A program made the translations under genes and the position numbers. From assembly GCF_016903815.1 (NCBI RefSeq), contig NZ_CP069973.1: DNA of 64,000 nucleotides, one strand, 5' to 3'. The notes beneath the pieces are model-generated. The model was not told where the DNA came from. It made no database searches and was given only the letters and a program-made list of their open reading frames with translations. Shown here piece after piece: positions 1 through 18,409 of this stretch; the stretch's first letter is position 1, and each line of letters begins with the position of its first letter. The stretch comes from Escherichia coli. GTDB lineage: Bacteria > Pseudomonadota > Gammaproteobacteria > Enterobacterales > Enterobacteriaceae.

Positions 1-219
1 GCTGGCGGACACTGTACCGGCAAAATCAATGCCTGGCACCATTGGAAAGTGCCGGACGATAGGCCCGCGGCCCGTAATAGCCAGTGCGTCTTTGTAGTTG
101 ATAGATGAACAGTCGACATTGACCTCCACATCCCCCTGTGGCAGCTCGCTTTCAGCGATTTCAGCAATTTGGGCACTGTGGCGGTCATCCATCTTACTGA
201 TTAATAATGATTTAAACAT
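1..219 (-). CDS. Partial CDS (N-terminal part; continues beyond window start): YhdH/AcuI-like MDR-superfamily NADPH-dependent oxidoreductase
   Basis: Reverse-strand translation from ATG at 217-219 reads MFKSLLISKMDDRHSAQIAEIAESELPQGDVEVNVDCSSINYKDALAITGRGPIVRHFPMVPGIDFAGTV, which aligns with the N-terminus of E. coli YhdH/AcuI (SSLNYKDALAITGKG...PMIPGIDFAGTV). Not the K-12 yhdH locus, so probably island cargo. Confidence 0.6.
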   Translation of the reverse strand, partial: MFKSLLISKMDDRHSAQIAEIAESELPQGDVEVNVDCSSINYKDALAITGRGPIVRHFPMVPGIDFAGTVSAS

Positions 220-872
220 TTTTTTTCTCGTCTTTCTGGTTTGATGTCATTGAGCTATAAAGTAGTCAATAAACAATATTGACCGATCGTCTAATAATCA
301 ACGCTGATATCCCAGTGTTTGTCAGAAAACAAGAATTGCTTTTCTTTTCATCAGGTTAAATCTATCTTTTTTGATTTATATCAAACCAGATTCGGTCTTC
401 AATTATATAGGCATCAATGTTAGCGGTCCTACAAGATACGCAGTCGATGCTTCAGGGCGTACTGATGAAATAAAACAAGTAGGCTGAGATTAGTTGGTCT
501 GCTCATCGCTCACAGCGGACCTTCAGCTTCGTTAGCCAAGCGCTGACATAGTTACCGATGTAGCGTGTTAATCTGTCGGGAGCATAGCCGAAATCACTTA
601 ATCCATTAGACTTCACCTAAAACTGCAAAAATTACCGTCTTTGTCACACTCACCGAGTTTAATCAAACTAACACTGTACATAGTGCGAACAAGAGCCAAC
701 CAGAAAGACTGTTCAGCATCAACAGTGAAGTTTTTCCCCGCCACTTCCCCGCAATTCCTCCGCAGTTTTCCCACTAGAGAGTTCGACACATCCCTTGCAT
801 ACCAACGCTTTGATTCAAATCTCGGTAGTGCATCCAATTAGTAGAATATGTGTTTTTCGATAAATGCTCCGA

Positions 873-1232
873 TCACTTTTTCGTGGATCTCAACTGAGCG
901 TGAGAAGCAGATTGTTTACGAGCCAACCGCTTAATGTGGGTGCGTAGCGTCAGATTATTACGCTCAATGCGTTGGGTGAATATTTTGCCGGTCAGATGCT
1001 TATTCTTCGGCACCACCCGGCCATAGCTGTCCCAGTCATCGCTGGTGAGCATGCCGATGTTGAAGGGTGTAAGCAGTGCCAGTAGCTCCCGGCACGTTTG
1101 ATTGGTTCGGGGACCAAAAGTGTAGGCCAGTACACCGCCTGTTTTGGTGTTGTACGCGTACCAGAGCCAGTGTAGCCGGGCTTTACTGCCAACGTAGCTC
1201 CATTGCTCATCAAGCTCGCAGATAAGCGCCAC
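873..1232 (-). CDS. insB: IS1-family InsB-like transposase segment (probably expressed as InsAB' by -1 frameshift, or N-terminally truncated)
   Basis: 119 aa ORF ...CELDEQWSYVGSKARLHWLWYAYNTKTGGVLAYTFGPRT... matches the IS1 InsB catalytic region (compare [25 protein letters not shown]...). Confidence 0.7.
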   Translation of the reverse strand: MALICELDEQWSYVGSKARLHWLWYAYNTKTGGVLAYTFGPRTNQTCRELLALLTPFNIGMLTSDDWDSYGRVVPKNKHLTGKIFTQRIERNNLTLRTHIKRLARKQSASHAQLRSTKK

Positions 1233-1258
1233 ATCAGCATGGGCAACAGGCGAAGAAG

Positions 1259-1531
1259 TTATTTGCGTTGGCGCGAGTTTTTTAAAGTCCGGATGATGGT
1301 GTTAATACCAATTTTCAGTGTCCTGGCGGTATCGCGAACCCCGGCACCATTAAAGGCCATTTCAGTGATCATCTCTTTCATACCCGGCTTACGTGCTTGA
1401 TAAGTATAAGTGAGCTGAAACACACGGTGGCAGTCACGGCAGCGAAATCTGTCACGGCCTTTAGGGTTCTGACCATGGCGGTAAACCTGAGCTGACTGAC
1501 AACGGGGACAATGAATATTAACGCTGGCCAT
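1259..1531 (-). CDS. insA: IS1-family InsA-like protein (zinc-finger/HTH transposition regulator)
   Basis: 90 aa MASVNIHCPRCQSAQVYRHGQNPKGRDRFRCRDCHRVFQLTYTYQARKPG...; CxxC...CxxC pattern and colinearity with canonical IS1 InsA. Confidence 0.8.
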   Translation of the reverse strand: MASVNIHCPRCQSAQVYRHGQNPKGRDRFRCRDCHRVFQLTYTYQARKPGMKEMITEMAFNGAGVRDTARTLKIGINTIIRTLKNSRQRK

Positions 1532-1783
1532 GAGATAACCTCAAAAGCCCGTATTATACATCAGATTCAACCAATTAGAGGCATCACCCTTTCCTACATT
1601 CGTAGGACTTTGATTACATATAGCAAGGGTTAATTCTTATATACATAGAATAAATTAGGAATATAATGAATTTTATCGTGACGACCTTATTTATAATTAA
1701 TTTATATCGTCAGAGAAATTAGTGTCCACAACATGAAGCCTTACAAAGAGATTCTATGATTTAAAAAAAATAAGAGCCAGCTT

Positions 1784-3253
1784 ATGCATATCGATTCGAC
1801 TGAAAAAAATAATAAACAAAAGTTGGGCTTGCTTGCGCTAACATCCATTGTCGTGAGCTCGATGATCGGCAGCGGCGTTGACGGACTCCCCCAGAATATG
1901 GCGGAGAATTCTGCCGTGGGCCCGGTGGCGATAGCATGGATAGTCTGTGGTATCGGCATGTTTTTCATCTCCAGAACTTTTATCGTGCTGTCAAACATTA
2001 GACCTGATCTCCAGTCAGGAGTTTATATGTATGCCCGGGAAGGGTTCGGCCGATTTACGGCATTTAACGTCGCCTGGGGCTACTGGCTGATGACTATATT
2101 CAGCAACGTCGCCTTTGCCATTATGGTGATGGATACGCTGAATTATTTCTTACCAGGTGATTTCAAGGGAGGGAACAATATTCCTTCCGTTATCGGTGCC
2201 TCTTTGCTGATATGGGGATTCAACTTTTTAGTCCTCTCCGGTACCCGCATTGCCGGGTCGATTAACATCGTCGGCACGCTGGCCAAACTGATCCCGCTGG
2301 TGGCCTTTATTATTATTCTCATGCTGTTTATGAAGTACACCACGTTCGCAGATAACGTCTGGGGGCACAGCGCGAGTAAGGCCAGTCAGGACCTAGGCTC
2401 TATTTTCTCACAGGTAACTTCACCGCTTAGCGTGGCACTCTGGAGCTTCATCGGCGTTGAGGGGGCTGTCGCTCTTTCCGGTCGGGCCAAAAATAAACGC
2501 GACGTGGGTAAAGCCACATTCATTGGCTTCGTTGTATCACTGATTATCTGTCTGCTGGTCTCCATCCTGCCGTTTGGCGTGCTGACTCAACATGAGCTCA
2601 GCGCAATTCCAACCCCATCCACCGCCGGTATTCTGAAGATTGTTGTCGGTGAATGGGGGAAGATTATGATTATCTTGGGGGTGCTGATTTCGGTGCTTAC
2701 CAGCTGGCTGGCGTGGACCATCATCTGCGCCGAACTGCCTATGGTGGCCGCGCAGAACGGCACATTCCCGAAACCGTTCAGCAAAAAAAATGTGAAGGGT
2801 TCGGCCTCGGTTTCGCTTTATATAAGCAGTGCGTTTATGCAAATCGTCGTACTTCTGGTCTACTTTTCTAACGATGCCTGGCTTGCAATGCTGGCTATCT
2901 CTACCCTGACCGTTTTACCTGCGTATTTAATGACCACGGCATACCTGTTTAAACTATGTATTAGCGGCGAGTATGCCAGCTATACCACGAATCACAGCCG
3001 CAGCGCCGCGCTGGTCAGCAGTATTATCGGCTTTGTATTCTGCCTGTTTATGTTCTACGCCAGTGAAATCAAATATCTGGCGATGGTTCCGGTGCTGCTT
3101 ACGCTGGGCGTGCCCCTGTTTATCTGGGCAAGAAAAAAAGACGATCGCGCAGATAAAATATTTACGCTACGCGAACTGGCATTTTTTATTTTACTGCTGG
3201 TCCTCGACATCATTGTTTTTATTCTACTGCATTATAAAACGATACATTTTTAG
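1784..3253 (+). CDS. ArcD/YdgI-type basic amino acid/polyamine antiporter (APC superfamily, APA family), copy 1
   Basis: 489 aa; ATG at 1784 with AAGAG RBS; N-terminal KLGLLALTSIVVSSMIGSGV..LPQNMA motif and GVEGAVALSGRAKNKRDVGKAT motif typical of ArcD/YdgI arginine:ornithine-type exchangers; multiple hydrophobic helices. Confidence 0.85.
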   Translation: MHIDSTEKNNKQKLGLLALTSIVVSSMIGSGVDGLPQNMAENSAVGPVAIAWIVCGIGMFFISRTFIVLSNIRPDLQSGVYMYAREGFGRFTAFNVAWGYWLMTIFSNVAFAIMVMDTLNYFLPGDFKGGNNIPSVIGASLLIWGFNFLVLSGTRIAGSINIVGTLAKLIPLVAFIIILMLFMKYTTFADNVWGHSASKASQDLGSIFSQVTSPLSVALWSFIGVEGAVALSGRAKNKRDVGKATFIGFVVSLIICLLVSILPFGVLTQHELSAIPTPSTAGILKIVVGEWGKIMIILGVLISVLTSWLAWTIICAELPMVAAQNGTFPKPFSKKNVKGSASVSLYISSAFMQIVVLLVYFSNDAWLAMLAISTLTVLPAYLMTTAYLFKLCISGEYASYTTNHSRSAALVSSIIGFVFCLFMFYASEIKYLAMVPVLLTLGVPLFIWARKKDDRADKIFTLRELAFFILLLVLDIIVFILLHYKTIHF

Positions 3254-3357
3254 TCCAGATTAATTCACAGCAAGTTAAGGTGACGATAATGTCTGTTTCT
3301 TGGGCATGACATCCTCACAGTTAAATACTATCTGAACAGTAACAGTGGAGACACCTA

Positions 3358-5727
3358 ATGAAATTTAACCACAATCTTTTATTTATTTCCTCACAATATC
3401 TTGATGGCGACAACCCTTCGCAGCAGGTACTGGAAGAGCTTCAAACCGAACTCGCGGAACGCGGTTTTAAAATTCATATCACGCACCAGATCTCTGATGG
3501 ATTAAAAATCATCGAAAAAAGCCCCCAATACAGCGGGATTGGTTTTTACTGGGAGCCAGACAATCCGACCTTTGCAGAAGAGCTACAGCACTTTATCAGC
3601 ATATTCCGCAAAAGAAATGCCACGACGCCGCTGATAATTTTCTCAGAACAGAATATTACCGATCGTATCCCACTCGACGTCTTAAAAGAGGTCAGCGAAT
3701 ATGTTTATCTGTTCTCTGAATCCGCAGCCTTCACTGCCAATCGACTGTACTCCTTAGTCCACCGCTATGCGGATAAGCTTCTTCCTCCCTACTTTAAAAC
3801 CCTTAAGGACTTTACCGAGGACGGTGACTATTACTGGGACTGCCCGGGGCATATGGGGGGAATGGCCTATCTGAAACATCCTGTTGGCATTGAGTTCATT
3901 AACTTCTTTGGCGAAAACATGATGCGCGCTGATATTGGCGTGGCTACCGCGGAGATGGGGGATTATCTGATCCACGCCGGACCGCCTAAAAAATCGGAAG
4001 AAATTGCGGCCCGACTGTTTGGCTCTGATTGGACCTTCTACGGTGTTTCCGGCTCATCGGGGTCGAACCGTATTGTGGCCCAGGCTGCGGTTGGCGCAGA
4101 TGAAATTGCCATTATTGACCGAAATTGCCACAAGTCACTTAATCATGGCCTGACCTTGTCTCAGGCAAGGCCGGTTTACCTGAAACCTACCCGCAACGCG
4201 TGGGGGCTGATTGGGCCTATCCCGACCGGACGCCTGAAGAAGGCCAGTATTGATGCGCTGGTGGCAAACAGCCGACTGGCATCTGGTGCGGTCAGCCAGT
4301 CCCCGTCCTACGCCGTGGTAACCAACTGCACCTATGATGGCTTCTGTTATAACGTGAACGATGTAGTCAGACACCTGGGTGAAAGCGCACCGCGCATCCA
4401 TTTTGATGAAGCATGGTATGCCTATGCGCGTTTCCATCCGCTATACCAGAGTCGCTATGCAATGGACGCGGAGGAAACGCCAAATCGTCCAACCCTATTC
4501 GCCGTACAGTCCACCCATAAAATGCTGCCCTCACTCTCCATGGCCTCAATGATTCATGTGAAGAAAAGCGATCGCGCGCCGCTTAATTTCGATGACTTTA
4601 ACGATGCCTTTATGATGCACGGCACGACCTCACCCTACTACCCGATCATTGCATCAATTGATGTGGCAGTAAGCATGATGGAGGGTGAATCCGGTTATTC
4701 GCTTGTGCAGGAGTCAATTGAAGAAGCGATTGCCTTCCGTAAAGCCGTGGTCAGCGTCAAGCGCCAGCTCCAGGAGCAGGAAGGTGGTGACGCCTGGTTC
4801 TTCGATGTGCTTCAGCCAACCGAAGTGCAGGACAGCGATTCTGGGCAGCGATACAGTTTTGAAGAGGCACCCGTATCGCTGCTGAGCCACAGCGCCGACT
4901 GCTGGTCGCTGCGCTCCGGTGAGCGCTGGCACGGTTTTGCCGATGATGATCTGGTCGAAACCAACAGTATGCTCGATCCAGTAAAAGTGACCCTGACTTG
5001 TCCAGGGATCGGCCCGAAGGGAGAATACCAGAAAAACGGTATTCCGGGATATTTGCTGACCCGTTTTCTCGATGACCGTCGCATTGAAATTGCCCGTACT
5101 GGTGACTACACCGTGCTGATCCTGTTCTCCGTCGGCATCACCAAAGGCAAATGGGGAACTCTGATTGAAAGCCTGCTGGCCTTTAAAAAGCATTACGACA
5201 ATGACGATCTGGCCACAGATGCTATCCCGTCGCTGAAAGCGCATTCTCCACACTACGACACGCTAACCCTCAAGGAGCTATGTCAGATAATGCATGAAAA
5301 AATGGATGAGCTGGAGCTGATGTCGCATATCAACGACGCGGTAAACACCGATCCGGAACCAGTTATGACCCCGGCAGAAGCCTATCAGAAAGTCGTACGC
5401 TACAAAACCGAGCATATCCGGCTGGATGATTTTAGCGGCAGAATTGCCGCCAGCATGCTCGTCCCATATCCCCCAGGCATTCCTGTACTGATGCCGGGCG
5501 AACGGATGCCGCAAGGTAACAAGGGCATTATTGGCTATCTGCGCGCCCTGCAGGAATTCGATAAGCAATTCCCAGGTTTTGAACATGAGATCCAGGGCGT
5601 TAACGTCGATGAAGACGGGGACTTCTGGGTCAGAGCGATTGTGGAAGAAGAACGCGATGGGCAGTCGCTACCCGGCCACATAACCTTTAAACGCCAGGTC
5701 TCTGGTATTAAAAAGGGCCGCCAGTAG
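3358..5727 (+). CDS. PLP-dependent Orn/Lys/Arg decarboxylase, AdiA/CadA/SpeF family (fold-I, with N-terminal wing domain); substrate not assignable from sequence
   Basis: 789 aa; GGAGA RBS before ATG 3358; conserved blocks shared with E. coli AdiA (YWDCPGHMGG, SGSSGSNRIV, DRNCHKSLNHGL, VVTNCTYDGFCYN, HFDEAWYAYARF, STHKML with the PLP-binding Lys, ASIDVAVSMMEG, MLDPVKVTL, KGKWGTL, PYPPGIPVLMPGE, FPGFEHE). Longer than AdiA (755 aa) with a distinct C-terminal tail. Confidence 0.9.
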   Translation: MKFNHNLLFISSQYLDGDNPSQQVLEELQTELAERGFKIHITHQISDGLKIIEKSPQYSGIGFYWEPDNPTFAEELQHFISIFRKRNATTPLIIFSEQNITDRIPLDVLKEVSEYVYLFSESAAFTANRLYSLVHRYADKLLPPYFKTLKDFTEDGDYYWDCPGHMGGMAYLKHPVGIEFINFFGENMMRADIGVATAEMGDYLIHAGPPKKSEEIAARLFGSDWTFYGVSGSSGSNRIVAQAAVGADEIAIIDRNCHKSLNHGLTLSQARPVYLKPTRNAWGLIGPIPTGRLKKASIDALVANSRLASGAVSQSPSYAVVTNCTYDGFCYNVNDVVRHLGESAPRIHFDEAWYAYARFHPLYQSRYAMDAEETPNRPTLFAVQSTHKMLPSLSMASMIHVKKSDRAPLNFDDFNDAFMMHGTTSPYYPIIASIDVAVSMMEGESGYSLVQESIEEAIAFRKAVVSVKRQLQEQEGGDAWFFDVLQPTEVQDSDSGQRYSFEEAPVSLLSHSADCWSLRSGERWHGFADDDLVETNSMLDPVKVTLTCPGIGPKGEYQKNGIPGYLLTRFLDDRRIEIARTGDYTVLILFSVGITKGKWGTLIESLLAFKKHYDNDDLATDAIPSLKAHSPHYDTLTLKELCQIMHEKMDELELMSHINDAVNTDPEPVMTPAEAYQKVVRYKTEHIRLDDFSGRIAASMLVPYPPGIPVLMPGERMPQGNKGIIGYLRALQEFDKQFPGFEHEIQGVNVDEDGDFWVRAIVEEERDGQSLPGHITFKRQVSGIKKGRQ

Positions 5728-5745
5728 GCGGGGGAAAGAACAATA

Positions 5746-5771
5746 CCGTCGGATCGCCTGCAATCCGACGG
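5746..5771 (+). promoter_or_regulatory. Intercistronic stem-loop between the decarboxylase and the downstream antiporter (possible attenuator or mRNA processing/stability element)
   Basis: Inverted repeat CCGTCGGAT-cgcctgca-ATCCGACGG (9-bp stem) in the 74-bp spacer; no strong T-run follows. Confidence 0.4.
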
Positions 5772-5801
5772 CAATATTATAGAATAGCTGAGGGAAACGT
5801 T

Positions 5802-7301
5802 ATGGCAGAGCAATCTTCAGATGTAAAAAATAGTGACAATAGCGCCGGAGGACATAAGCTGGGGCTTATATCCCTCATCGCTATTGTCGTTAGCTCCATG
5901 CTGGGAGGCGGCGTTTTCAGTCTGCCGCAAAACACGGCGGCCTCTTCTGCACTAGGGCCAGTAATCATTGCATGGATTATTGCCGGGATCGGTATTTATT
6001 TTATCGCAAACTCCTTTCGCGTACTATCAGATCTGCGCCCGGACCTTCAGGCTGGAGTGTATATGTATGCCCAGGAAGGTTTTGGTTCCTTTATTGGCTT
6101 TAACGTCGCCTGGGGCTACTGGCTGATGACCGCATTTGGCAACGTTGCCTTTGCGGTAATTTTAATGGATGCTTTTAATCAGTTTATGCCGGGGGTTTTT
6201 ACGGATGGTAATAATCTGAACTCCATTATCTGCGGCTCAGTGCTGATCTGGGGCTATAATTTTCTTGTTCTGTCCGGGACGAAAGTGGCCGGATTTGTTA
6301 ACACCTTGGGAACCATCGCCAAGCTCGTCCCTCTGATCCTATTCGTATTACTGCTGGGTGTGCTGATCGATTATTCGGACCTGTTTAAAAACTTTTGGGG
6401 AGAATCACCCGCGATCCTCAGTGGCAACGGAAATGACGCCGCACCAGTATCGCTGCTGTCTCAGATTCTGGCACCGATGACCGTAACGCTCTGGGCCTTT
6501 ATTGGCGTCGAGGGAGCGGTTGTTCTATCCGGACGTGCCAAAAATAAACAGGACGTAGGGAAAGCCACACTGATCGGCTTTCTGCTGGCGCTAATTATTT
6601 ATATGTTAATGTCCATTCTGCCGTTCGGTGTAATGCCTCAGGCAGAACTAGCGCAGGTCAGTAACCCCTCTACCGCAGGCGTGCTCGCCCACGTTGTCGG
6701 TCAGTGGGGCGACTGGCTGATGAGCGCGGGGCTGATTATTTCTGTTCTGGCCGGCTGGCTTGCCTGGACCATGCTATGCGCTGAAATACCGATGGTAGCA
6801 GGACAGAAAGGCGCTTTCCCGCGCGCGTTTGCCCGAACGAACAGTAAACAGGCGGCCAATGTGTCACTGTGGGTTAGTAGCTTTGTGATGCAGGCGGCCA
6901 TGTTACTTGTTTATTTTTCAAATAATGCTTGGACCACCATGTATAATATCAGTGCGCTGATGGTTGTTCCGGCCTATATTACCACCACGCTGTATCTGAC
7001 CAGTATTTGCAGAAACGGAAAATATGATCAGTATGCAAAAAAAGGCCGCAGGCTGGCTTTGTCCAGCGGTGTTTTAGGCTCGCTATTCTGTCTGTTTATT
7101 CTTTACGCCAGCCAGATTGAGTATGTTGCATTAATTCCTATCCTGTTGACCTGTGGTCTGCCGGTCTTTATCTGGTCAAGAAAAGAAAAAAATGATGGTC
7201 AGCCGATATTTACCAAAAAAGAGCTGATTTATCTGATTATGCTGTTGCTGTGCGATATTATCGTCGTTGCCCTGTTTATTGGTGGATATTTAAAGGTATA
7301 A
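5802..7301 (+). CDS. ArcD/YdgI-type basic amino acid/polyamine antiporter (APA family), copy 2 (paralog of 1784..3253)
   Basis: 499 aa; GAGGGA RBS; same motifs as copy 1 (KLGLISLIAIVVSSMLGGGVFSLPQNTA, GVYMYAQEGFG, FNVAWGYWLMT, GVEGAVVLSGRAKNKQDVGKAT) with long collinear identity. Confidence 0.85.
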   Translation: MAEQSSDVKNSDNSAGGHKLGLISLIAIVVSSMLGGGVFSLPQNTAASSALGPVIIAWIIAGIGIYFIANSFRVLSDLRPDLQAGVYMYAQEGFGSFIGFNVAWGYWLMTAFGNVAFAVILMDAFNQFMPGVFTDGNNLNSIICGSVLIWGYNFLVLSGTKVAGFVNTLGTIAKLVPLILFVLLLGVLIDYSDLFKNFWGESPAILSGNGNDAAPVSLLSQILAPMTVTLWAFIGVEGAVVLSGRAKNKQDVGKATLIGFLLALIIYMLMSILPFGVMPQAELAQVSNPSTAGVLAHVVGQWGDWLMSAGLIISVLAGWLAWTMLCAEIPMVAGQKGAFPRAFARTNSKQAANVSLWVSSFVMQAAMLLVYFSNNAWTTMYNISALMVVPAYITTTLYLTSICRNGKYDQYAKKGRRLALSSGVLGSLFCLFILYASQIEYVALIPILLTCGLPVFIWSRKEKNDGQPIFTKKELIYLIMLLLCDIIVVALFIGGYLKV

Positions 7302-7443
7302 GTCCGAGTTAAATCTTTACTGGGCTAGTAATGCCGCCTTTTAAACAAGAAGGGCGGCAATCTTACTGAAATTAGTATGCTGCAAATCGGTAATGCTGCC
7401 AACTTACTGATTTAGTGTATGATGGTGATTTTAAGGTGCTTGC

Positions 7444-7719
7444 GTGGCTTCCATTTCCATCAGATGTCCTTCCTGCTCCGCTACTGAAGGCGTGGTGCGT
7501 AACGGCAAAAGCACTGCCGGACATCAGCGCTATCTCTGCTCTCACTGCCGTAAAACATGGCAACTGCAGTTCACTTACACCGCTTCTCAACCCGGTACGC
7601 ACCAGAAAATCATTGATATGGCCATGAATGGCGTTGGATGCCGGGCAACTGCCCGCATTATGGGCGTTGGCCTCAACACGATTTTACGTCACTTAAAAAA
7701 CTCAGGCCGCAGTCGGTAA
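7444..7719 (+). CDS. insA: IS1 InsA
   Basis: 91 aa [91 protein letters not shown]. Confidence 0.95.
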
Positions 7720-8141
7720 CCTCGCGCATACAGCCGGGCAGTGACGTCATCGTCTGCGCGGAAATGGGCGAACAGTGGGGCTATGTCGGGGCTAAATCGC
7801 GCCAGCGCTGGCTGTTTTACGCGTATGACAGGCTCCGGAAGACGGTTGTTGCGCACGTATTCGGTGAACGCACGATGGCGACGCTGGGGCGTCTTATGAG
7901 CCTGCTGTCACCCTTTGACGTGGTGATATGGATGACGGATGGCTGGCCGCTGTATGAATCCCGCCTGAAGGGAAAGCTGCACGTAATCAGCAAGCGATAT
8001 ACGCAGCGAATTGAGCGGCATAACCTGAATCTGAGGCAGCACCTGGCACGGCTGGGACGGAAGTCGCTGTCGTTCTCAAAATCGGTGGAGCTGCATGACA
8101 AAGTCATCGGGCATTATCTGAACATAAAACACTATCAATAA
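7638..8141 (+). CDS. insB: IS1 InsB (expressed as InsAB' fusion by frameshift)
   Basis: 167 aa ORF ...[40 protein letters not shown]...[10 protein letters not shown], canonical IS1 InsB. Confidence 0.95.
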
Positions 8142-8156
8142 GTTGGAGTCATTATC

Positions 8157-8949
8157 TAACCGTAGCGTTTATTACGCGCAGGTGACGCGTCCTGTTAATG
8201 TGCAAAGAATTGACTTACGAAGTCGGGTGAGGGCTTTCCATGCTCTCAGTCGTGGCGCAGCCGGTAGCCGTGCAATCAGTCAGATGTTGCGCCAGAGTAG
8301 CGTTGATGCAGGCCGGTGGCTGGCACGACGACTGATGCGGGAATGCGGGCTGACAAGTCGACAGATGGTTAAACATCACTACCGGGTCAACGAAGACAAA
8401 AGTCCGCCATTGCCAAATTTACTGAACCGGCAATTTCACCCCGCCGCACCAGACCGCGTCTGGTGCGGCGACATCAGTTTTATTCGCCTGCATGACAAAT
8501 GGTGTTAGCTCGCGCTCGTTGTTGATTTATATTCACGGCGGATTACCGGTTCAGCCCTCTCATTAACCGCTGATGCTGAGTTGGTGTGTAGGGCTTTGCG
8601 TAATGCACTGGAAACACGATCACGTGATGGCCGTCTGCTGTTTCATTCAGATCAAGGTGTTCAGTATAAAAGCAATAAATACAGAAAGTTACTCTGGCGT
8701 TATGGGGTAATGCAAAGTATGAGTTGCAGAGGGAATGGCCTGGATAATTCGCCGATGGAAAGAGTCTTTCGCAGCCTTAAAAATGAATGGCTTCCGAAAG
8801 GTGGTTATGGTGATTTTATCCATGCGGTACGTGATATAAACCAGTGGATTAATGGTTATTACAACGTTTATCGACCTCACACGAACAACGATGGTTTACC
8901 GCCTTGCTTACATGAAGAAAAGTGGAAACAGGTTATTCCGGTGTCCTGA
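8157..8949 (+). pseudogene. IS3-family transposase OrfB remnant: 5' part (OrfA and start of OrfB) removed by the IS1 insertion, plus an in-frame TAG at 8506-8508
   Basis: Single reading frame translates ...[49 protein letters not shown]...[11 protein letters not shown]...[13 protein letters not shown]...[15 protein letters not shown], collinear with IS3/IS2-type OrfB; the amber codon sits where family members have Tyr (WLYLAVV). 3' end of the element not precisely located (probably within ~40 bp after 8949). Confidence 0.8.
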
Positions 8950-9166
8950 TTTTGTGAACCACTACAATAATCCTTTTTCACAGACTTGTCAGCAGCCAGC
9001 ATTTATGTTCTTTTACCTGCGGGAATTTATCCGTCTGCCTGTCGGGACTACTCTGTCATACAGAAATCAGGTAGGAATAAATTGTAGTGGAAAGTCGATG
9101 TTTACCGGATGACTGATGCGCGCTTGTACACAGACAGTGTGTTTCAGTAATATGGAGAATAATGAA

Positions 9167-9667
9167 ATGAATAACACAGACACATTAGAAAAAATAATCA
9201 GACACCAAAAAAACAAAGACCCCGCATATCCCTTTCGGGAACATTTGTTGATGCAGCTCTGTATTCGCACAAATAAAAGAATGCAGGATAATATATCTGA
9301 ATTTCTGGGGGCGTATGGAATAAATCACTCAGCATATATGGTTCTCACCACATTATTCGCAGCGGAGAACCATTGTCTGTCACCTTCAGAGATAAGCCAG
9401 AAACTTCAGTTTACCAGAACTAATATTACCCGCATTACAGATTTTTTAGAAAAAGCCGGATATGTAAAAAGGACGGATAGCAGGGAGGATCGCCGTGCTA
9501 AAAAAATCAGTCTGACATCTGAAGGTATGTTTTTTATTCAGAGGCTCACTCTTGCACAAAGCATGTATCTGAAAGAAATCTGGGATTATCTGACTCATGA
9601 TGAACAGGAACTGTTTGAAGTCATTAATAAAAAATTACTGGCACATTTTTCTGATGCCAGCTCATAA
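9167..9667 (+). CDS. MarR-family transcriptional regulator, EmrR/MprA-like (possibly a PapX/SfaX-type 17-kDa regulator)
   Basis: ORF 9116..9667; likely start ATG 9167 after GGAGA. Sequence ...YPFREHLLMQLCIRTNKRM...GINHSAYMVLTTLFAAENHCLSPSEISQKLQFTRTNITRITDFLEKAGYVKRTDSREDRRAKKISLTSEG... aligns with EmrR (winged-helix region [28 protein letters not shown]). Surrounded by AT-rich DNA. Confidence 0.8.
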   Translation: MNNTDTLEKIIRHQKNKDPAYPFREHLLMQLCIRTNKRMQDNISEFLGAYGINHSAYMVLTTLFAAENHCLSPSEISQKLQFTRTNITRITDFLEKAGYVKRTDSREDRRAKKISLTSEGMFFIQRLTLAQSMYLKEIWDYLTHDEQELFEVINKKLLAHFSDASS

Positions 9668-10133
9668 AGTGCGAAATATCTGAGGATGCTGGATAGCTTC
9701 AGGCAAGAGAATAATGATTCTTGCAGATGTGTTTTTCCGGATACAAAAACAAAAGTAAAAAATTGCAGCGCCAGGCCACCTTTCAAAGCAGGGAGGCTTG
9801 TACCGCGTCGAAAATTTCAGCCAGTTAATGTAATTGTCTGAACCAGGCACTTCGCCCGGGCAGGAGAAGGAGCGTGGTTGCGGTCATCCTGTATACTGAA
9901 GTCGTTATGAAGGAATAATACAAATAATTGCCCGTTTTCTCTGTACGATAGAGGCAGGTGTGTATGATTGCATCACTATGTTTTTGTGATATAAAAAACT
10001 AAATGGTGAGATATGCATTTTAAAATATAACAAAAATCACCATGAAATAAGAATAATTATCCACGGAGAACATAAACTGCAGACTGTTACAATGCATGCT
10101 GTTCATCTTGACAATGTCGGTAATGACTCCAAC

Positions 10134-10637
10134 TTATTGATAGTGTTTTATGTTCAGATAATGCCCGATGACTTTGTCATGCAGCTCCACCGATTTTGAG
10201 AACGACAGCGACTTCCGTCCCAGCCGTGCCAGGTGCTGCCTCAGATTCAGGTTATGCCGCTCAATTCGCTGCGTATATCGCTTGCTGATTACGTGCAGCT
10301 TTCCCTTCAGGCGGGATTCATACAGCGGCCAGCCATCCGTCATCCATATCACCACGTCAAAGGGTGACAGCAGGCTCATAAGACGCCCCAGCGTCGCCAT
10401 CGTGCGTTCACCGAATACGTGCGCAACAACCGTCTTCCGGAGCCTGTCATACGCGTAAAACAGCCAGCGCTGGCGCGATTTAGCCCCGACATAGCCCCAC
10501 TGTTCGCCCATTTCCGCGCAGACGATGACGTCACTGCCCGGCTGTATGCGCGAGGTTACCGACTGCGGCCTGAGTTTTTTAAGTGACGTAAAATCGTGTT
10601 GAGGCCAACGCCCATAATGCGGGCAGTTGCCCGGCAT
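10134..10637 (-). CDS. insB: IS1 InsB
   Basis: 167 aa, identical in translation to the InsB at 7638..8141. Confidence 0.95.
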
Positions 10638-10831
10638 CCAACGCCATTCATGGCCATATCAATGATTTTCTGGTGCGTACCGGGTTGAGAAGCGGTGTAA
10701 GTGAACTGCAGTTGCCATGTTTTACGGCAGTGAGAGCAGAGATAGCGCTGATGTCCGGCAGTGCTTTTGCCGTTACGCACCACGCCTTCAGTAGCTGAAC
10801 AGGAGGGACAGCTGATAGAAACAGAAGCCAC
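10556..10831 (-). CDS. insA: IS1 InsA
   Basis: 91 aa [37 protein letters not shown]..., canonical InsA. Confidence 0.95.
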
Positions 10832-11360
10832 TGGAGCACCTCAAAAACACCATCATACACTAAATCAGTAAGTTGGCAGCATCACCCAATCTGCTGACAG
10901 ACGAAGATAATGAACCCGTTATGGTTTTTAACGGAGAGAGGAATGTACTGGCAGACAGTCTGAAACCACAGCCTCTGATTCTTCCGGTCAAGGGAAAATA
11001 AGCGTAATGTTCATCACCAGATTATGTACGATGAGTTTTCCACTGTTTATAGCAATTATCTTGCTAATAACCAGACAGGAGTAACCAGACCAACCGAAAA
11101 CACCGGGAAGGTGATTACCCGCTGGCAGAGGAAATCCGGTTTTTTTTGATGTCAGCCATAACGTGTTTGACAATAAAGCATCATGAAAGGGTGTTAATGA
11201 GTCCATGGGATAATTCATAAAAATAATTTACTGTGTTATCCTTTTCAAAAGAAATATTCAGAAGATAACCCCTGGCTGACAACCAGGGGAAGGGGGCATT
11301 AACAGTGTTATTATTGGTGAATAAATTATTACTTGTGTGCAGGATACACTAATGCAATAT

Positions 11361-12434
11361 CTACTGATACTGTATGCCAGTATGTTTCATGCCTGCCGCT
11401 GAAAACGGCAATATCCAGGGCCAGACATATTCACCATTCATATTTCTGCATTTCTGTACAATTTTCTCAGAAAGCGTCTCATCAATTCTTTCACGCAACT
11501 TCTCCTGCTGTCTTAAAATACTTTCGCATATTTCGAAATCATCTTCCTGCATCAGCATTTCGGCGCATTTAATGATTTCTGCCCGTTCATGCAGCACAGA
11601 GGAATGATTATAGAGCCAGTTTACAAACAGCAATGCTTCCGGATATTGCCCCCATAACGGGTGGTATGTGGCATAATAATCTTCGGCAGTATCCGGACCG
11701 CCTGAAAAGTTATGCCATACAGCAAGTGGAAATGGATGCAGATTTCCGCACAGTATTTCTGCGATGTAAGTATTTGCCGCAAAGCCGCGACGAAATGCAG
11801 TTGCAGCTTTTACCAGTTCCCCATTAAGAAAATGCAGAAGGCCGAGTTCATACCAGTAAGGTGAAAATTCATCTGCATGTTCCTGCAGTATATGGCGTGC
11901 CTGTTCATGAGCGCCAGTGCGTAACAGTTCCGGTCCCAGTAGCCAGCGTGCACCATGATTATCTTCGGGATTGTAATCCAGTATTTTTTCAATGAGCATG
12001 ATGGCATCCTGATGACGCCGTAAATGTGCATTTGCCAGGATTGCCGCATAGAGGGCACGAAGAAAAGGTCGGTTGTCAGGATGTATCCAGATGATTCTGC
12101 CACTGAAACCTTCAGGGATAAGACGATTGCCAACTGCCAGCCCTTTAAGGGCAGCATTCAGCGCCTTACGCGGGGCATTCTGCTCCAGAAATACGTATGC
12201 CAAGTGAGCGTGTACATCAATAAAGTCATTCTCCTGTCGGGCAAGGCGCCTGAGTTTGTTGATGTAACTTGTTTCGCTGATTTCATCCGCATCGTATGCA
12301 TCAATCAGTTCTTCAAACTCATCCAGCAACGAGCCAAACCAGGTTTCCGGAAATATGAAACAGCCCTGGTTATCGTTCACTTCAAAGCGTAATTTGCCAG
12401 TCATATTCTGAACCTGTAAAAAAGGATGGACCAT
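11361..12434 (-). CDS. Hypothetical protein (island cargo next to integrase); helical-repeat (TPR-like) character, function unknown
   Basis: 357-aa ORF (possible internal start at MTGKL...); no family recognised from memory; lies immediately downstream of the integrase region inside the pheU island. Confidence 0.55.
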   Translation of the reverse strand: MVHPFLQVQNMTGKLRFEVNDNQGCFIFPETWFGSLLDEFEELIDAYDADEISETSYINKLRRLARQENDFIDVHAHLAYVFLEQNAPRKALNAALKGLAVGNRLIPEGFSGRIIWIHPDNRPFLRALYAAILANAHLRRHQDAIMLIEKILDYNPEDNHGARWLLGPELLRTGAHEQARHILQEHADEFSPYWYELGLLHFLNGELVKAATAFRRGFAANTYIAEILCGNLHPFPLAVWHNFSGGPDTAEDYYATYHPLWGQYPEALLFVNWLYNHSSVLHERAEIIKCAEMLMQEDDFEICESILRQQEKLRERIDETLSEKIVQKCRNMNGEYVWPWILPFSAAGMKHTGIQYQ

Positions 12435-12616
12435 AACCTGCAGGCTATAAAAATTGTGATGCCTGGCATCGGTGTCCTTTTATTGTCCGGGATTAACGTT
12501 GCCCATGATAATACAGTGAATTCTGTTCTGTGGTAAGACGTTGAGTTATTGAATGAGAACCTCAGCCTGGCTGATGGTTCCGCCGGCATAAAAAAGAAAT
12601 TGATTGAGGCGGGTGC

Positions 12617-12640
12617 TCTTCCCCTTAAGAGGAAGAGCAT
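12617..12640 (-). terminator. Near-perfect 12-bp inverted repeat just downstream of the integrase stop (possible terminator or protein-binding palindrome)
   Basis: GCTCTTCCCCTT/AAGAGGAAGAGC palindrome with one mismatch; T-run on minus strand is somewhat distal. Confidence 0.35.
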
Positions 12641-12659
12641 GTGTGTAAATGGCGTTCAG

Positions 12660-13925
12660 TCACCTTTTCAGTGGATTGTTAACTTTTGCATATTCAAACG
12701 GACTGATACACTCCTCCCTGTTTGCATCCAGAAAATCTGCCCACCATTGCAGCATAAGCCGACGTTCTTCCAGATGTTCTGCTTTATGAATATACGCGGC
12801 ACGTACTCCGTTGCGCTCCTGATGACTCATCTGACGTTCAACCGCATCTCTTGACCATAAGCCGGATTCAATCAATGCACTGCACGCCATCGCCCGGAAT
12901 CCATGGCCACAGACTTCCTTGGTTGTGTCATACCCCATCACCCTCAGGGCTTTATTTACAGTATTTTCACTGATTGGTTTACGCGGGTCATGTGCACCCG
13001 TAAATATCAGACCATTTTCACCTGCCCATGTCTGAAGTTCTGTCAGTATGGCTACAGCCTGTTTACTGAGTGGCACAAGATGTGGTGTCCGCATCTTGGA
13101 GCCCCGGTGTGAGAATTTTACGCCAGGCAGAGGTTCGCGTTCGGCTGGAATAGTCCACATGGCATTGTCAATATCAATTTCAGACCAGCGGGCATATCTG
13201 AGTTCACTGGAACGAATAAAAACCAGTAAATTCAGCATAACGGCAAGCCGGGTGACAGGCTGGCCTTTATAACCGTCAATACGCGACAGAAGTTCAGGCA
13301 GGCGTGAAAGATTCAGAGCGGGGCGATGCTGGCGTTTTACCGTGGTCAATGCACCAGCCATATCCAGAGCCGGGTTATATCTGATGATGCCAGACTGTAC
13401 GGCGTAACGCATTACAGCAGATATTCTTTGCTGCAGACGACTAGCGATTTCATAAATTTGTTTTGCTTCTGCAGCACGAACAGGGATAAGCAGGTCCGGG
13501 GTATTGAGTGTTGTGATATCCCGGTTGCCGATAAAGGGGAAAACGTGTGTCTCGAGGCTTTTGAGTACTTTATCGCTGTGTGATTGTGCCCATTGTTTAT
13601 TACTGGCATGCCAGCGTCGTGCAATATGTTCAAAAGAGAGCTGTAAATCAGGGACTACTTTTTTAACTCTTTTCTGTTCGCAAGGGTCAATCCCCTCTGA
13701 AATCAGTTTTCGGGCCTCATCCCGTTTTGTACGAGCTTCGGAGAGAGAAACTTCTGGATACACACCAAGTGCCAGAGTCTTCTCCTTACCCAGAATACGA
13801 TAACGGAGACGCCAGTAACGGGAACCATTAGGATGAACCAGCAGGAACATGCCGGCCCCGTCAGTGAGTTTATAAGCCTTGTCAGTGGGCTTTGCAGCCC
13901 GGATTTTTGCGTCAGTCAGTGCCAT
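12660..13925 (-). CDS. P4-type (phage/island) tyrosine integrase, tRNA-associated
   Basis: 421 aa MALTDAKIRAAKPTDKAYKLTDGAGMFLLVHPNGSRYWRLRYR..GKEKTLALGVYPEVSLSEARTKRDEARKLI...; C-terminal region with HGFRAMACSALIESG...R and catalytic-type motifs; adjacent to the 3' end of tRNA-Phe. Confidence 0.93.
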   Translation of the reverse strand: MALTDAKIRAAKPTDKAYKLTDGAGMFLLVHPNGSRYWRLRYRILGKEKTLALGVYPEVSLSEARTKRDEARKLISEGIDPCEQKRVKKVVPDLQLSFEHIARRWHASNKQWAQSHSDKVLKSLETHVFPFIGNRDITTLNTPDLLIPVRAAEAKQIYEIASRLQQRISAVMRYAVQSGIIRYNPALDMAGALTTVKRQHRPALNLSRLPELLSRIDGYKGQPVTRLAVMLNLLVFIRSSELRYARWSEIDIDNAMWTIPAEREPLPGVKFSHRGSKMRTPHLVPLSKQAVAILTELQTWAGENGLIFTGAHDPRKPISENTVNKALRVMGYDTTKEVCGHGFRAMACSALIESGLWSRDAVERQMSHQERNGVRAAYIHKAEHLEERRLMLQWWADFLDANREECISPFEYAKVNNPLKR

Positions 13926-14085
13926 AGTTCAGCCTTCTGAATGCGTTAAAGAGGGTATAAATTCTGTCGAACTGGGGTATGCCCACAATTATACCCACAC
14001 AATGAGGTTGATGTGGGGGGAATCTGGTTGAGTTCGGTAGAATTGATTTGGAGGCAGGACGCTTAAATCGTGGCGTCCTGGAATG

Positions 14086-14110
14086 AAAAACGGACCTCCG
14101 TGGAGGTCCG
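14086..14110 (-). terminator. Rho-independent terminator of pheU
   Basis: Palindrome CGGACCTCCG-TGGAGGTCCG followed (on minus strand) by a T-run, immediately 3' of the tRNA. Confidence 0.7.
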
Positions 14111-14122
14111 TTGATATGAATT

Positions 14123-14198
14123 TGGTGCCCGGACTCGGAATCGAACCAAGGACACGGGGATTTTCAATCCCCTGCTCTACCGACTGAGCTATCCGGGC
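14123..14198 (-). tRNA. pheU: tRNA-Phe(GAA)
   Basis: Reverse complement reads GCCCGGATAGCTCAGTCGGTAGAGCAGGGGATTGAAAATCCCCGTGTCCTTGGTTCGATTCCGAGTCCGGGCACCA (76 nt, CCA end, GAA anticodon). Confidence 0.97.
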
Positions 14199-14304
14199 AA
14201 CGGGGCGCATTAAACCGTAATCTGCACATCTCGTCAACCTAATTTCAGTAAAAGCGATTCAACTGCTTAAGATTGCGGCAAATCGCTTCTTTTCTGTGTT
14301 TCTG

Positions 14305-14880
14305 TCAGGTCAAAGCACCACCCTGGCGGCAGCGGGCGAAGCGCAGGATATCTTCCGCCAGCCGATGTGCGGTGTCGACATCCGCCTGGCTACGATTCAC
14401 CAGCATTCGGCTTAAACAGCCTTCCAGCACCAGTTCCATCTGCTTTGCTACCATCGCCGGATCGTCAACTTCCAGTGTGGTTAACAGTTCGTGGGTGAAA
14501 TCGTAGGCCGCGCTTTTTTGCTGATCGGCCAGTTGATGAATAGGGTGGCCAGGATCGGGATAAAACGTACAGGCAGCGATAAACAGACAGCCCGGATAGC
14601 GGTTGTTTTTAACGCACTCCGATAACGCCTGATAACGTGCCAGCAACTTTTGTTCGGCGGTTTGCGTTTCGTCCAGCATCAGCTGACGACGCCAGACATC
14701 TATCTGTTGGCTAAGATAACGCAGCGCATCGTAGAGGATTGCCTCTTTGTCTGGCCAGAAGCGGCGTAGCTCGTCCAGTGGATAATCCACACGTTCAGCA
14801 ACCATCTCCAGCGTGGTGTTGGCAATCCCTTGTAATTCTAATAATTTCAGGGCTTCTCCCAGTACATCTTCACGTTGCAC
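14305..14880 (-). CDS. yjdC: TetR-family transcriptional regulator YjdC
   Basis: ORF 14305..14904; GTG start at 14880 gives 191 aa matching K-12 YjdC (…[30 protein letters not shown]…). Confidence 0.85.
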
Positions 14881-14916
14881 GCTATTTTCCTCCGTCTTTC
14901 CCACTGCAAGTGTCGT

Positions 14917-16614
14917 TCACGGTTGGCGATCGCGCAAATGTGCGCTGAAGGTTTCAGCATCCATAAAGCCCGTGACGCGTGCTTGTGGATGCTCCTGGCC
15001 TTGTCCGTCAAAAAAGAGAATTGTCGGTAGGCCAAGGACATTAAGATGCTTTAACAGCGCCACATCTTGTGCGTCGTTGGCAGTGACGTTGGCCTGAAGT
15101 AATACCGTGTCTGCTAACGCTTTTTGCACCTGCGGGTCGCTGAAGGTGTATTTCTCAAACTCTTTACAGGCGACGCACCAGTCGGCATAGAGATCTAACA
15201 TCACTGGTTTGCCTTTGGCTTCAACGAGCGCCTGATTTAACTCATCTACCGTTTTGATTTGTGTAAAGTTGAGATGCGTCTGAGTTTGCGCGGTATGCGT
15301 CGCACCAAATGCCCAATCCTGAAGTGGGCGCACGCTAACCAATGCCGCTGCCAGCAGGATTATTTGCACCACGCGCATCCAGCCGCGTTTGGCCTGTAGG
15401 CTGGTGATAAAGGCCCAGCCAAAGAATGCGACACCAAGCGCCGACCACAAGCGTAATCCCCATATATCACCAATCACTCGCTCCAGCAGGAAGACCGGCA
15501 GTGCGAGGATCACAAAACCAAACGCGGTTTTGACTTGTTCCATCCACGGGCCGCTTTTCGGCAGCAAGCGGTTACCAAAGACGGTAATTAGCATCAGCGG
15601 CAGGCCCATGCCCAACGCATAGAGATAAAGCGTGCCGCCCCCCAGCCACATGTTCCCGCTTTGGGCGATATACAGCAGAATCGCGCTAAGCGGTGCGGTG
15701 GTGCATGGTGAACAGATCAGTCCGGCAATCGCCCCCATAACAAACACACCGCCAGGTGAGCCGCCCTGTTGGCGATTGCTCATCAGCGTGAGACGTGTTT
15801 GCAGCGAAGAGGGGAGTTGCAGAGTAAACAAGCCAAACATTGACATCGCCAGCAAGGTAAAGACGATAGCGAGGCCAATGAGCACGTATGGGTGCTGTAG
15901 CGCCGCCTGGAACTGTAACCCTGCGGCGGCAACCACCAGACCCAGTGCCGTGTAAGTCAGCGCCATCCCCTGCACATAAATAAAGGTCAGCAACAATGCT
16001 CTGGCAGTGGAGAGCCGCTGTTTACCGCCCAGCACGATACCAGAAATCAGTGGGTACATTGGCAGCACGCATGGCGTAAAGGCGATACCAATACCGATCA
16101 ACAACGCCCAGAGCGCGGAAAAGGGCAATTGCGCGGTGGGCTGCTCTTGCTGCGGAACAGACACAGGCTGTGACGCTGCGTTGTTGGCGACCACTTCGCT
16201 TAACGGAACGGTTTTGGTTTCTGGCGGATAACAGAAACCGGCATCAGCACAGCCCTGGTAGGTGATAGTTAACGTCGCTCCCGCACTCGCCTGGTTGATG
16301 GTGACGGGAAGCGTCAGCCGATCGCGGTAAATCTCGCTTTTGCCGTAAAACTCATCTTCATGCCAGACGCCTTGCGGCAGCTGCACGTCGGCAATTTTCG
16401 CGTGTTCCGGCGTAATGCGGATCTGTTTACGGTAGAGGTAGTAACCGTCTTTGATCTGCCAGGTCAGATTCAGGTCATGTTGGTTTTGCTGAAAATCAAA
16501 AGCAAAGGCTTGATCCGCGGGGACAAATTGTGAACGTCCCGGCGCGTCGAATAATCCGGCAAAAACGGAAGTGCTGCAAAGTAGCAGGATCAGCGTAAAG
16601 ATGCGTTGAGCCAT
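14917..16614 (-). CDS. dsbD: Thiol:disulfide interchange protein DsbD
   Basis: 565 aa from [22 protein letters not shown]...; CxxC thioredoxin-like C-terminal domain (DWCVACK). Confidence 0.95.
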
Positions 16615-16928
16615 GAGAGGTAATCTGTGTCTCCGTGTGTAACAGGTAAAACCAGAAGTTCCGGGGTTTGATATGGATGATGAGACTTCAGGCATTCCAG
16701 CAGTGCCTGCTGGTGAGATACGGTAGTTTTTAAAATCATCTGCACTTCGTATTCTTGCTCCAGCTTACCTTCCCAGTAATAGAGAGAGGTAGCGCCGGGG
16801 ATCAAGGTCGCGCAGGCCGCCAGTTTTTCCGCCAGCACTTTGGCGGCTAAATCCTGGGCTGTCGCTTCATCCGGTGCCGTACATAGCACCACGACAGACG
16901 CGGTATTCGAACTTTTTTCATCAAGCAT
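16590..16928 (-). CDS. cutA: Divalent-cation tolerance protein CutA
   Basis: 112 aa [61 protein letters not shown]... Confidence 0.95.
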
Positions 16929-18344: not shown

Positions 18345-18409
18345 ATTAGCCTTCCTTGTTTTTTAACAAGTTGATATTAGATTGTTATTTTTAAGTTACT
18401 GCTCACAAG

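Follow-up and report, generated by a model that had tools for sequence, protein, structure and literature searches.

The integrase-proximal end of a PAI-pheU-type genomic island of about 75 kb in Escherichia coli

Introduction

The phenylalanine tRNA gene pheU of Escherichia coli is a classical insertion hotspot and is also known as a site for elements of the ICEEc2 type. The closest catalogued occupant is PAI-S88-pheU of E. coli S88 (NC_011742, 4621378-4684940, 64 kb), listed with PapX as its determinant (PMC7545054). PapX is a MarR-family repressor of flhDC (PMC6246914, PMC7545054). Other islands at the same gene include PAI II of CFT073 (52 kb), which carries a P pilus and IreA, as well as SHI-3 and LEE variants (PMC7545054). 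At the paralogous gene pheV, the GI-pheV/intP4 islands carry a P4-type integrase beside a tRNA-Phe gene and have a mean size of 75 kb when attR is present (PMC11537424). The satellite phage P4 itself targets the 3' end of a tRNA-Leu gene; its attachment core ends at the tRNA CCA and is accompanied on both sides by tandem 12-mer arm-like repeats, at distances close to those in the island described here.

Here we analyse a stretch of 64,000 nt of an E. coli chromosome (the window), whose first 14 kb had been proposed to be part of an island at pheU. We found no literature describing this particular island. We conclude that positions 1-14198 are very probably the tRNA-proximal, integrase-bearing end of an island of about 75 kb, of the same kind as the intP4 and PAI-pheU islands.

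Results

ARAGORN and Rfam alike called a tRNA-Phe(GAA) gene on the minus strand (Table 1), identical in sequence to K-12 pheU in the alignment. To its right lie dicD/yjdC, dsbD, cutA and dcuA, and window positions 14009-19571 are collinear with K-12 at 99.1%; this flank identifies the tRNA gene as pheU. On the other side, everything from 1 to 14122 consists of insertion sequence copies and patchily distributed cargo, in keeping with the preliminary description, which had regarded all DNA left of the tRNA as accessory. At 10 nt past the CCA end lies a terminator-like hairpin. It falls to the island side of the crossover, and the same hairpin is found 3' of the far repeat described below and 3' of pheU in K-12.

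Table 1. Features of the island end and its attachment site, in window coordinates
Feature	Position	Strand	Basis
Alcohol dehydrogenase pseudogene fragment, 3'-truncated, running off the left end of the window	1..219	-	Annotation of an identical genome (31493-31837, its locus coordinates)
Divergent IS1-family element, frameshifted transposase (CDS 838-1531)	824..1588	-	Annotation; terminal inverted repeats read
Basic amino acid/polyamine antiporter, 489 aa	1784..3253	+	TIGR00905, 487 bits
AdiA-like Orn/Lys/Arg-family PLP decarboxylase, 789 aa	3358..5727	+	NCBIfam
Basic amino acid/polyamine antiporter, APC family, 499 aa	5802..7301	+	TIGR00905, 493 bits, above cutoff
IS1 copy, 768 bp	7389..8156	+	Annotation; inverted-repeat and end-sequence comparison
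IS3-family transposase fragment, pseudogene	8158..8949	+	Annotation of an identical genome
Orphan papX allele	9116..9667	+	Nucleotide identity; NCBIfam MarR/MprA-like
IS1A copy, 768 bp, inverted relative to the IS1 at 7389-8156	10119..10886	-	blastn, end sequences, annotation
Small hypothetical ORF, 76 aa	10988..11218	-	Annotated in an identical genome
TPR-like protein adjoining int, 347 aa annotated, ORF to 12434	11361..12404	-	Weak Pfam TPR matches only
P4-type tyrosine integrase, intact, ATG start, 421 aa	12660..13925	-	Pfam domains; identity to P4 Int
Two tandem 12-mers, GTGTGGGTATAA TTGTGGGCATAC, resembling P4 arm-type Int-binding sites (candidate)	13977..14000	-	Comparison with P4 annotation
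Terminator-like hairpin, 10-bp stem then T run	14089..14112	-	Consensus scan
attL core: last 23 nt of pheU, near copy of the direct repeat	14123-14145	-	Single 23-mer match in the window
pheU, tRNA-Phe(GAA)	14123..14198	-	ARAGORN; Rfam RF00005, 68.3 bits; alignment with K-12

The integrase, which had been described as P4-type and adjacent to the 3' end of tRNA-Phe, is so on both counts. Its gene shares the strand of the tRNA and begins 197 nt past the CCA end. The protein contains the Pfam domains Arm-DNA-bind_3, Phage_int_M and Phage_integrase, and shows 55% identity with phage P4 Int across 410 aa (E = 4e-174). Its segments RSSELR, HGFR and AAYIH, picked by eye in the translation, fit the R, HxxR and Y positions of tyrosine recombinases. 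The tandem 12-mers are candidate int-side arm sites of the attachment site. They lie 122 nt from the core, against 112 nt for their counterpart in P4, and E. coli strain 7/2 has a matching pair 52 nt inward of the far repeat (53 nt in P4); the search pattern was built from the two sites themselves, so that its uniqueness is partly circular. The island also holds a Vis/AlpA-like gene, a candidate excisionase, whose product is 36% identical to P4 Vis.

With up to 3 mismatches allowed, the 64-kb window contains the 23-nt tRNA 3' end a single time, and an indel-tolerant search of the strain 7/2 sequence matching window positions 1-17383 likewise gave no second copy; the preliminary description had spotted none in positions 1-14000. 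The far boundary was located in the strain 7/2 chromosome, which differs from the window by 1 SNP in 17,383 nt; positions 1-16000 are 100% identical in at least 11 complete genomes. A mismatch-only search (up to 3 mismatches) of the adjoining 50 kb gave no match. The far repeat, TTCGATTCCGAGTCCGG-CACCA, matches 22 of the 23 nt and was missed by that search because it differs by a 1-nt gap; it was located by reading the cadC-proximal spacer and by an indel-tolerant search. Counted from window position 1, it is some 60.8 kb to the left, so that the direct repeat anticipated to the left exists and the island, predicted to exceed 14 kb, spans 74.9 kb in strain 7/2 between the two copies of the tRNA 3' end, the only two in 98 kb around the site. 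Many intP4 islands at pheV are listed with exactly this sequence as their attR type (PMC11537424 Table 1).

The island thus continues leftward of position 1, and its left 60.8 kb, which lies outside the window, was reconstructed from near-identical genomes. Out of 126 genomes that share window positions 1-16000, 106 also contain 80% or more of the adjoining 25 kb, and the far junction is present at 99% identity or more in 148 genomes. Past the far repeat, strain 7/2 is collinear with the K-12 spacer between pheU and cadC, and contains an integrase relic of the K-12 type (like yjdQ) followed by cadCBA, which is intact beyond the island.

In K-12, the flanks of the site are contiguous and the order is pheU, integrase relic, cadC. 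There cadC lies 616 nt from pheU on this side, bearing out the earlier statement that cadCBA adjoins pheU in K-12 and that here the tRNA is followed by the island instead. The relic (yjdQ) is an internally deleted P4-type integrase, hence this 'empty' site is not pristine. With only a 114-nt relic of the region in K-12-like genomes, the island integrase is not a core gene. The uninterrupted cadC-pheU arrangement occurs in about two thirds of complete E. coli genomes (~64-73%, a rough range taken from rank positions, since occupied sites still cover 82% of the query). The accessory stretch of the window as a whole was found in 126 of 5426 complete E. coli genomes. The GC content of the island is 48.2%, compared with 51.8% in the core part of the window.

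Within the 14 kb there are three IS1-family copies and an IS3 fragment. The IS1 copies at 7389-8156 and 10119-10886 form an inverted repeat with 98% complementarity. No matching 9-mers were found as target-site duplications of these two copies in either the direct or the crossed arrangement, and the direction of the inversion relative to S88 (see below) is therefore not polarisable. Between them, papX has 99.5% nucleotide identity to genes annotated as papX and 95.5% to papX of CFT073, while neither the window nor the strain 7/2 island has an annotated pap operon or pap structural genes. Homologues of the TPR-like protein occur on other mobile elements. A defence function is conceivable for the TPR gene and the 76-aa ORF next to int; neither has a match in PADLOC or PHROGs.

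The cargo includes an IS-flanked module (1556-7388), with the divergent IS1-family element as its left flank. Amino-acid-dependent acid resistance systems of the Adi/Cad type combine a decarboxylase with a cognate substrate/product antiporter, an equivalog score identifying the substrate. The genes at 1784-7301 have this architecture, a wing-domain PLP decarboxylase with antiporters, and their substrate-level scores are below the cutoffs. For the decarboxylase, the best NCBIfam match is arginine decarboxylase (AdiA), at 740 bits below the cutoff of 1167; the nearest solved structures are biodegradative arginine decarboxylases, and homologues with 75-77% identity are found in Hafnia, Proteus and Providencia, the nearest seen outside E. 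coli. The two antiporters on either side of it are ArcD-type paralogues with 55% pairwise identity; both score under every equivalog cutoff, and the one at 1784..3253 is distant from AdiC. The module was found in 494 of the 5426 complete E. coli genomes (~9%). ATCC 8739 also has it, in another context, with homology starting at 1556. A plasmid origin of the module was considered and dropped, as no plasmid match was found. It is possible, though we hold this tentatively, that the module is a functional, uncharacterised additional system for amino-acid-dependent acid resistance or amine production that has been moved between islands by insertion sequences.

Outside the window, the strain 7/2 island holds a glycyl-radical propanediol microcompartment locus, T6SS fragments, a group II intron and a CP4-type toxin-antitoxin/antirestriction module. 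The T6SS fragments hint at the pheU island of EAEC 042 (aai T6SS), which we take to be a possible lead.

The island is closely related to PAI-S88-pheU, which shares its insertion site and integrase family and has a far repeat with the same 22-nt core, including the 1-nt gap. Over the part in the window, the two are 98.6-99.8% identical. Starting from pheU, they share the order int, TPR protein, IS1, papX, IS1, antiporter-decarboxylase-antiporter, IS1-family element and ADH fragment, broken only by one inversion of an IS1-bounded segment (8157-10118) that contains the IS3 fragment and papX. PAI-S88-pheU also has the grp microcompartment locus and a CP4-type distal module, and in all aligns with 69% of the strain 7/2 island. 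The strain 7/2 island has in addition a pseudouridine-utilisation cluster of about 7.6 kb, and its central ~13.5 kb (exonuclease, IS2, PAPS reductase, IbrB-like genes, a PerC-family regulator and the group II intron) stands where PAI-S88-pheU has Qat and SLATT defence genes.

PAI II CFT073 and the other pheU islands have the same attachment site and are the same kind of element, and neither the window nor the strain 7/2 island has annotated LEE or aerobactin genes. The GI-pheV/intP4 islands have an identical attR type and a similar size, and are likewise mosaic and rich in insertion sequences, but they sit at pheV instead of pheU and their cargo differs. P4 differs in its tRNA target; the island is six times its size and lacks the other P4 genes.

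Discussion

The position and strand of the integrase, the far direct repeat, the empty site, the base composition and the mobility genes are all those of a P4-type island integrated at a tRNA gene. The likeness to P4 in Int, in the Vis-like gene and in the architecture of the attachment site would also suit an integrated P4-like satellite prophage. We rejected this reading, to which we give next to no probability: tblastn with all 13 P4 proteins against the whole 75-kb island found int and vis only, with no alpha primase, sid, psu, delta, cI or epsilon, and the P4 genome, at 11.6 kb, is far smaller than the island. Just as implausible is an integrative conjugative element, even though both pheU and pheV are reported as insertion hotspots for such elements (PMC11537424); among the 100-odd features annotated in the strain 7/2 island, on which this rejection is based, there is no relaxase, coupling protein or type IV secretion gene. 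It is also very improbable that nothing was inserted and that the segment is ancestral E. coli DNA lost from K-12 and others. The integrase relic at the K-12 site does indicate that deletions have happened there, but in strain 7/2 a relic of the same type lies outside the far repeat, the segment carries an integrase and has the tRNA 3' end repeat and P4-like arm sites at both ends, and its cargo is patchy across genomes with a GC content below that of the core.

A different question is whether the island in the source genome matches that of strain 7/2 throughout. It could differ in length or in its left part, being for instance of the 64-kb S88 type or truncated, given that islands of this family are mosaic, that strain 7/2 departs from the window by one SNP, and that, of the 126 genomes sharing positions 1-16000, 20 contain less than 80% of the 25 kb that follow. 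We consider this unlikely, since a single SNP across 17.4 kb points to one clone and since the adjoining 25 kb and the far junction are so widely shared.

An inserted genomic island thus remains our preferred reading. The anatomy of this end, the island limits in a complete genome almost identical to the window, the homology of the integrase to P4 Int, the attachment architecture resembling that of P4, the empty site of K-12 and the close relationship to PAI-S88-pheU are observed; the recombination mechanism we infer as follows. An ancestral element that encoded a tyrosine integrase of the P4 type and bore a duplicate of the final 23 nt of tRNA-Phe would have recombined into the 3' end of pheU. 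The element's own copy of the tRNA end would have rebuilt a functional tRNA, while the other copy of the repeat and the chromosome downstream of it, including the older integrase relic and cadCBA, would have been displaced to the far end. Insertions, deletions and inversions mediated by IS1 and IS3, together with exchange of modules, would later have reshaped the island where it sits. The orphan papX may be all that remains of a pap operon, if one ever existed. Since 31% of the island falls outside the alignment with PAI-S88-pheU, and since ATCC 8739 has the decarboxylase module in different surroundings, the island as it now stands is not the product of a single integration. As a secondary possibility, it may still be competent for excision, as its parts include an intact int, the Vis-like gene, both cores and both predicted arms; no transfer genes are annotated in it.

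The element is a textbook, already catalogued kind of E. coli genomic island that has since been scrambled by insertion sequences. It is a mosaic related to a catalogued pathogenicity island and contributes no new biology. Its practical value is correct annotation, namely of the island end, of the intact cadCBA and of the mostly decayed cargo in the window. The decarboxylase/antiporter module and the TPR gene adjoining int are uncharacterised accessory genes present in many clinical isolates, and they are the only parts of the island that might repay experiments.

Boundaries of the island

A tRNA-Phe(GAA) gene was found at 14123–14198 on the minus strand by ARAGORN, and Rfam concurred. To its right lie dicD/yjdC, dsbD, cutA and dcuA, and 14009–19571 of the window is collinear with K-12 at 99.1% identity, which identifies the tRNA as pheU and means that the foreign DNA ends, on its right, at the tRNA itself. 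On the strand of the tRNA, starting with an ATG 197 nt past its CCA end, is a 421-aa integrase ORF. It carries Arm-DNA-bind_3, Phage_int_M and Phage_integrase, the domain trio of P4/CP4-type integrases, and matches phage P4 Int at 55% identity along 410 residues (E = 4e-174); stretches fitting the R, HxxR and Y positions of tyrosine recombinases were picked by eye rather than from a reference alignment. The preliminary description had proposed this arrangement, with accessory DNA to the left of the tRNA, and IS elements and non-core cargo do occupy these 14 kb. It had also placed the K-12 cad genes on the island side, and in K-12 cadC is 616 nt from pheU, opposite dicD/yjdC–dcuA. The core part of the window holds three tRNA-Gly(GCC) genes (43772–44191) that have no relation to the island.

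With up to 3 mismatches allowed, the 23-nt tRNA 3′ end has a single copy in the 64-kb window, and an indel-tolerant search likewise gave one copy in the matching sequence of strain 7/2, covering 1–17383, in agreement with the earlier failure to spot a second copy in 1–14000. Strain 7/2 (NZ_CP023820.1) differs from the window by 1 mismatch in 17,383 nt, and its accessory DNA extends about 61 kb further left. A mismatch-only search of this genome did not find the far repeat, which carries a 1-nt gap: its cadC-side spacer reads TGGTG-CCGGACTCGGAATCGAA, 22 of the 23 nt of the tRNA 3′ end (19813–19834 of L002, a stretch of the strain 7/2 record). In an indel-tolerant search of 98 kb of strain 7/2, this repeat and the tRNA were the only two copies; they are 74.9 kb apart, with the far one some 60.8 kb to the left of window position 1. 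Past it comes DNA that is collinear with the K-12 pheU–cadC spacer, and then intact cadC, cadB and cadA. In strain 7/2, leftward extension yielded the direct repeat, bore out a length above 14 kb and showed that cadCBA is kept past the island.

Window 1–16000 has a 100% identical match in at least 11 complete E. coli chromosomes, and 126 of 5426 genomes carry 80% of it or more. The next 25 kb to the left has at least 80% coverage in 106 genomes, and the far junction is present at 99% identity or more in 148. What uncertainty is left comes mainly from the left 61 kb, which were read from near-identical genomes and not from the source genome.

Attachment sites and mobility

On the tRNA strand the far repeat is TTCGATTCCGAGTCCGG-CACCA, exactly an attR type that Table 1 of PMC11537424 lists for many intP4 islands, there at the paralogous gene pheV; this type, with its 22-nt core and 1-nt gap, is the commonest attR of pheV islands in the literature. 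Since the identical type occurs at so many islands, the gap is a family trait and not private decay. It may have been inherited from the attP of the element, or integrated islands carrying it may have spread through homologous recombination in their flanks.

Close to the far repeat, on its island side, strain 7/2 has a 12-mer pair, CTGCGGGTATAA and TTGAGGGTACAT, matching the pair near pheU. The island 12-mers look like the arm repeats annotated in P4 attP (TTGGGGGCATAA and similar). The search pattern was built from these two sites, which makes it partly circular to cite its being unique in 163 kb; what speaks independently for candidate arm sites is that their sequence, orientation and spacing are like those of P4.

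Features of the island end of the window and of its putative attachment site
Feature	Position	Remark
Terminator-like hairpin	14112–14089	10 nt past CCA
Two tandem 12-mers, GTGTGGGTATAA + TTGTGGGCATAC	13977–14000	candidate arm sites
12-mer distance from core, int side		122 nt here, 112 nt in P4
12-mer distance from core, far side		52 nt in strain 7/2, 53 nt in P4
int	12660–13925	nearest tRNA; cargo runs leftward from here
TPR-like protein, 347 aa	11361–12404	
Small ORF, 76 aa	10988–11218	
IS1A	10119–10886	
papX	9116–9667	
IS3-family fragment	8158–8949	
IS1	7389–8156	
Antiporter	5802–7301	
Decarboxylase, 789 aa	3358–5727	
Second antiporter	1784–3253	
Divergent IS1-family element, frameshifted	824–1588	
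Alcohol dehydrogenase pseudogene end	1–219	

Strain 7/2 also encodes, some 40 kb to the left of the window, a 77-aa Vis-like protein with 36% identity to P4 Vis. The other 11 P4 proteins have no homologue anywhere in the island, which rules out a satellite prophage, and the strain 7/2 annotation of the island contains no conjugation genes, which rules out an ICE. With its arms, int and the Vis-like gene, and with no conjugation genes, the element is an island that does not transfer itself and whose P4-type integration module looks complete. The best-supported account is that an intP4-type element integrated site-specifically into the 3′ end of pheU, as the preliminary description held, and then stayed long, being remodelled by IS elements. 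The preliminary description was right both in its observation and in its reading. The sequences show the anatomy, the boundaries, the homologies and the empty site, while the recombination chemistry and any present-day mobility would follow the P4 paradigm.

Cargo

The int-adjacent TPR-like and 76-aa genes gave no PADLOC, PHROG or strong Pfam match. Homologues with 50–55% identity have a Tn3-family transposase and resolvase as neighbours in Morganella, and Fic, helicase, DprA-like and type I RM genes in Azovibrio; this may be a mobile-element accessory, or a defence gene, of a kind so far uncharacterised.

A papX allele accounts for the MarR-family gene, which is 99.5% identical to annotated papX genes and 95.5% to CFT073 papX. 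PapX is an flhDC repressor encoded by the pap operon (PMC6246914; PMC7545054). Here papX is an orphan among IS elements and the pap structural genes are absent, consistent with loss of the operon through IS elements; the orphan could still affect motility regulation.

The decarboxylase is nearest to biodegradative arginine decarboxylases, yet well under the NCBIfam equivalog cutoffs, and belongs to a group of about 790 aa whose nearest relatives are 75–77% homologues in Hafnia, Proteus and Providencia. The ArcD-type antiporters flanking this AdiA-like enzyme are paralogues (55% identity). The IS-flanked module (1556–7388) is present at 99% identity or more in 494 of 5426 E. coli genomes; no plasmid matched it. 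In ATCC 8739 it has a different IS-bounded context, adjoining fec genes (homology from 1556 to 7778), which marks it as an IS-mobilised cargo unit.

Further left, strain 7/2 holds a complete grpA–S glycyl-radical propanediol microcompartment locus (record 4740109–4760463; L001/L002), with reverse-transcriptase-domain genes interrupting it after grpO and before grpP. The central segment of the island (17600–31500 of L001, about 4762600–4776500 of the record) contains T6SS fragments (ImpA-N, VasL, POTRA), IS2, PAPS reductase and IbrB-like genes, a PerC-family regulator, and a group II intron (ltrA) within IS3 debris. The T6SS fragments recall the pheU island of EAEC 042 with its aai T6SS, a possible link.

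Relationship to other pheU islands

Insertions at pheU are classical; the site is used by PAI II CFT073, PAI-CE10-pheU, PAI-ED1a-pheU, LEE variants and SHI-3, and by the 64-kb PAI-S88-pheU, whose listed determinant is ‘PapX’ (PMC7545054). The present element is of this known kind and closely related to PAI-S88-pheU, to which 69% of the strain 7/2 island is alignable. The two share int-proximal gene order (98.6–99.8% identity), the grp locus, a CP4-type distal module, and a far repeat with the same 22-nt core and 1-nt gap (S88 record 4621491–4621512). They differ in that strain 7/2 has an additional pseudouridine-utilisation cluster and that the central segment is exchanged, S88 having Qat and SLATT defence genes there. 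In addition, 8157–10118 (the IS3 fragment and papX, between inverted IS1 copies) is reversed relative to S88 and APEC E18006 (O1:K1:H7), likely through recombination of the two IS1 copies; no target-site duplications remain around IS1 or IS1A in either arrangement.

The empty site of K-12

The K-12 pheU–cadC spacer contains the yjdQ pseudogene (7192–7354 of L003, a K-12 stretch), in which tblastn revealed codons 1–11 of a P4-type integrase joined to codons 359–420, an internal deletion. Strain 7/2 has an integrase relic past the far repeat (about 19460–19620 of L002), and the first 114–133 nt after the tRNA are 88–91% identical among the window, K-12 and the strain 7/2 stretch past the far repeat. 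This identity and the yjdQ relic indicate that an older related element was once at pheU. The present island lies between the tRNA and the older integrase relic, and the textbook ‘empty’ pheU site of K-12 is itself a scar, left behind by a related island of older date.
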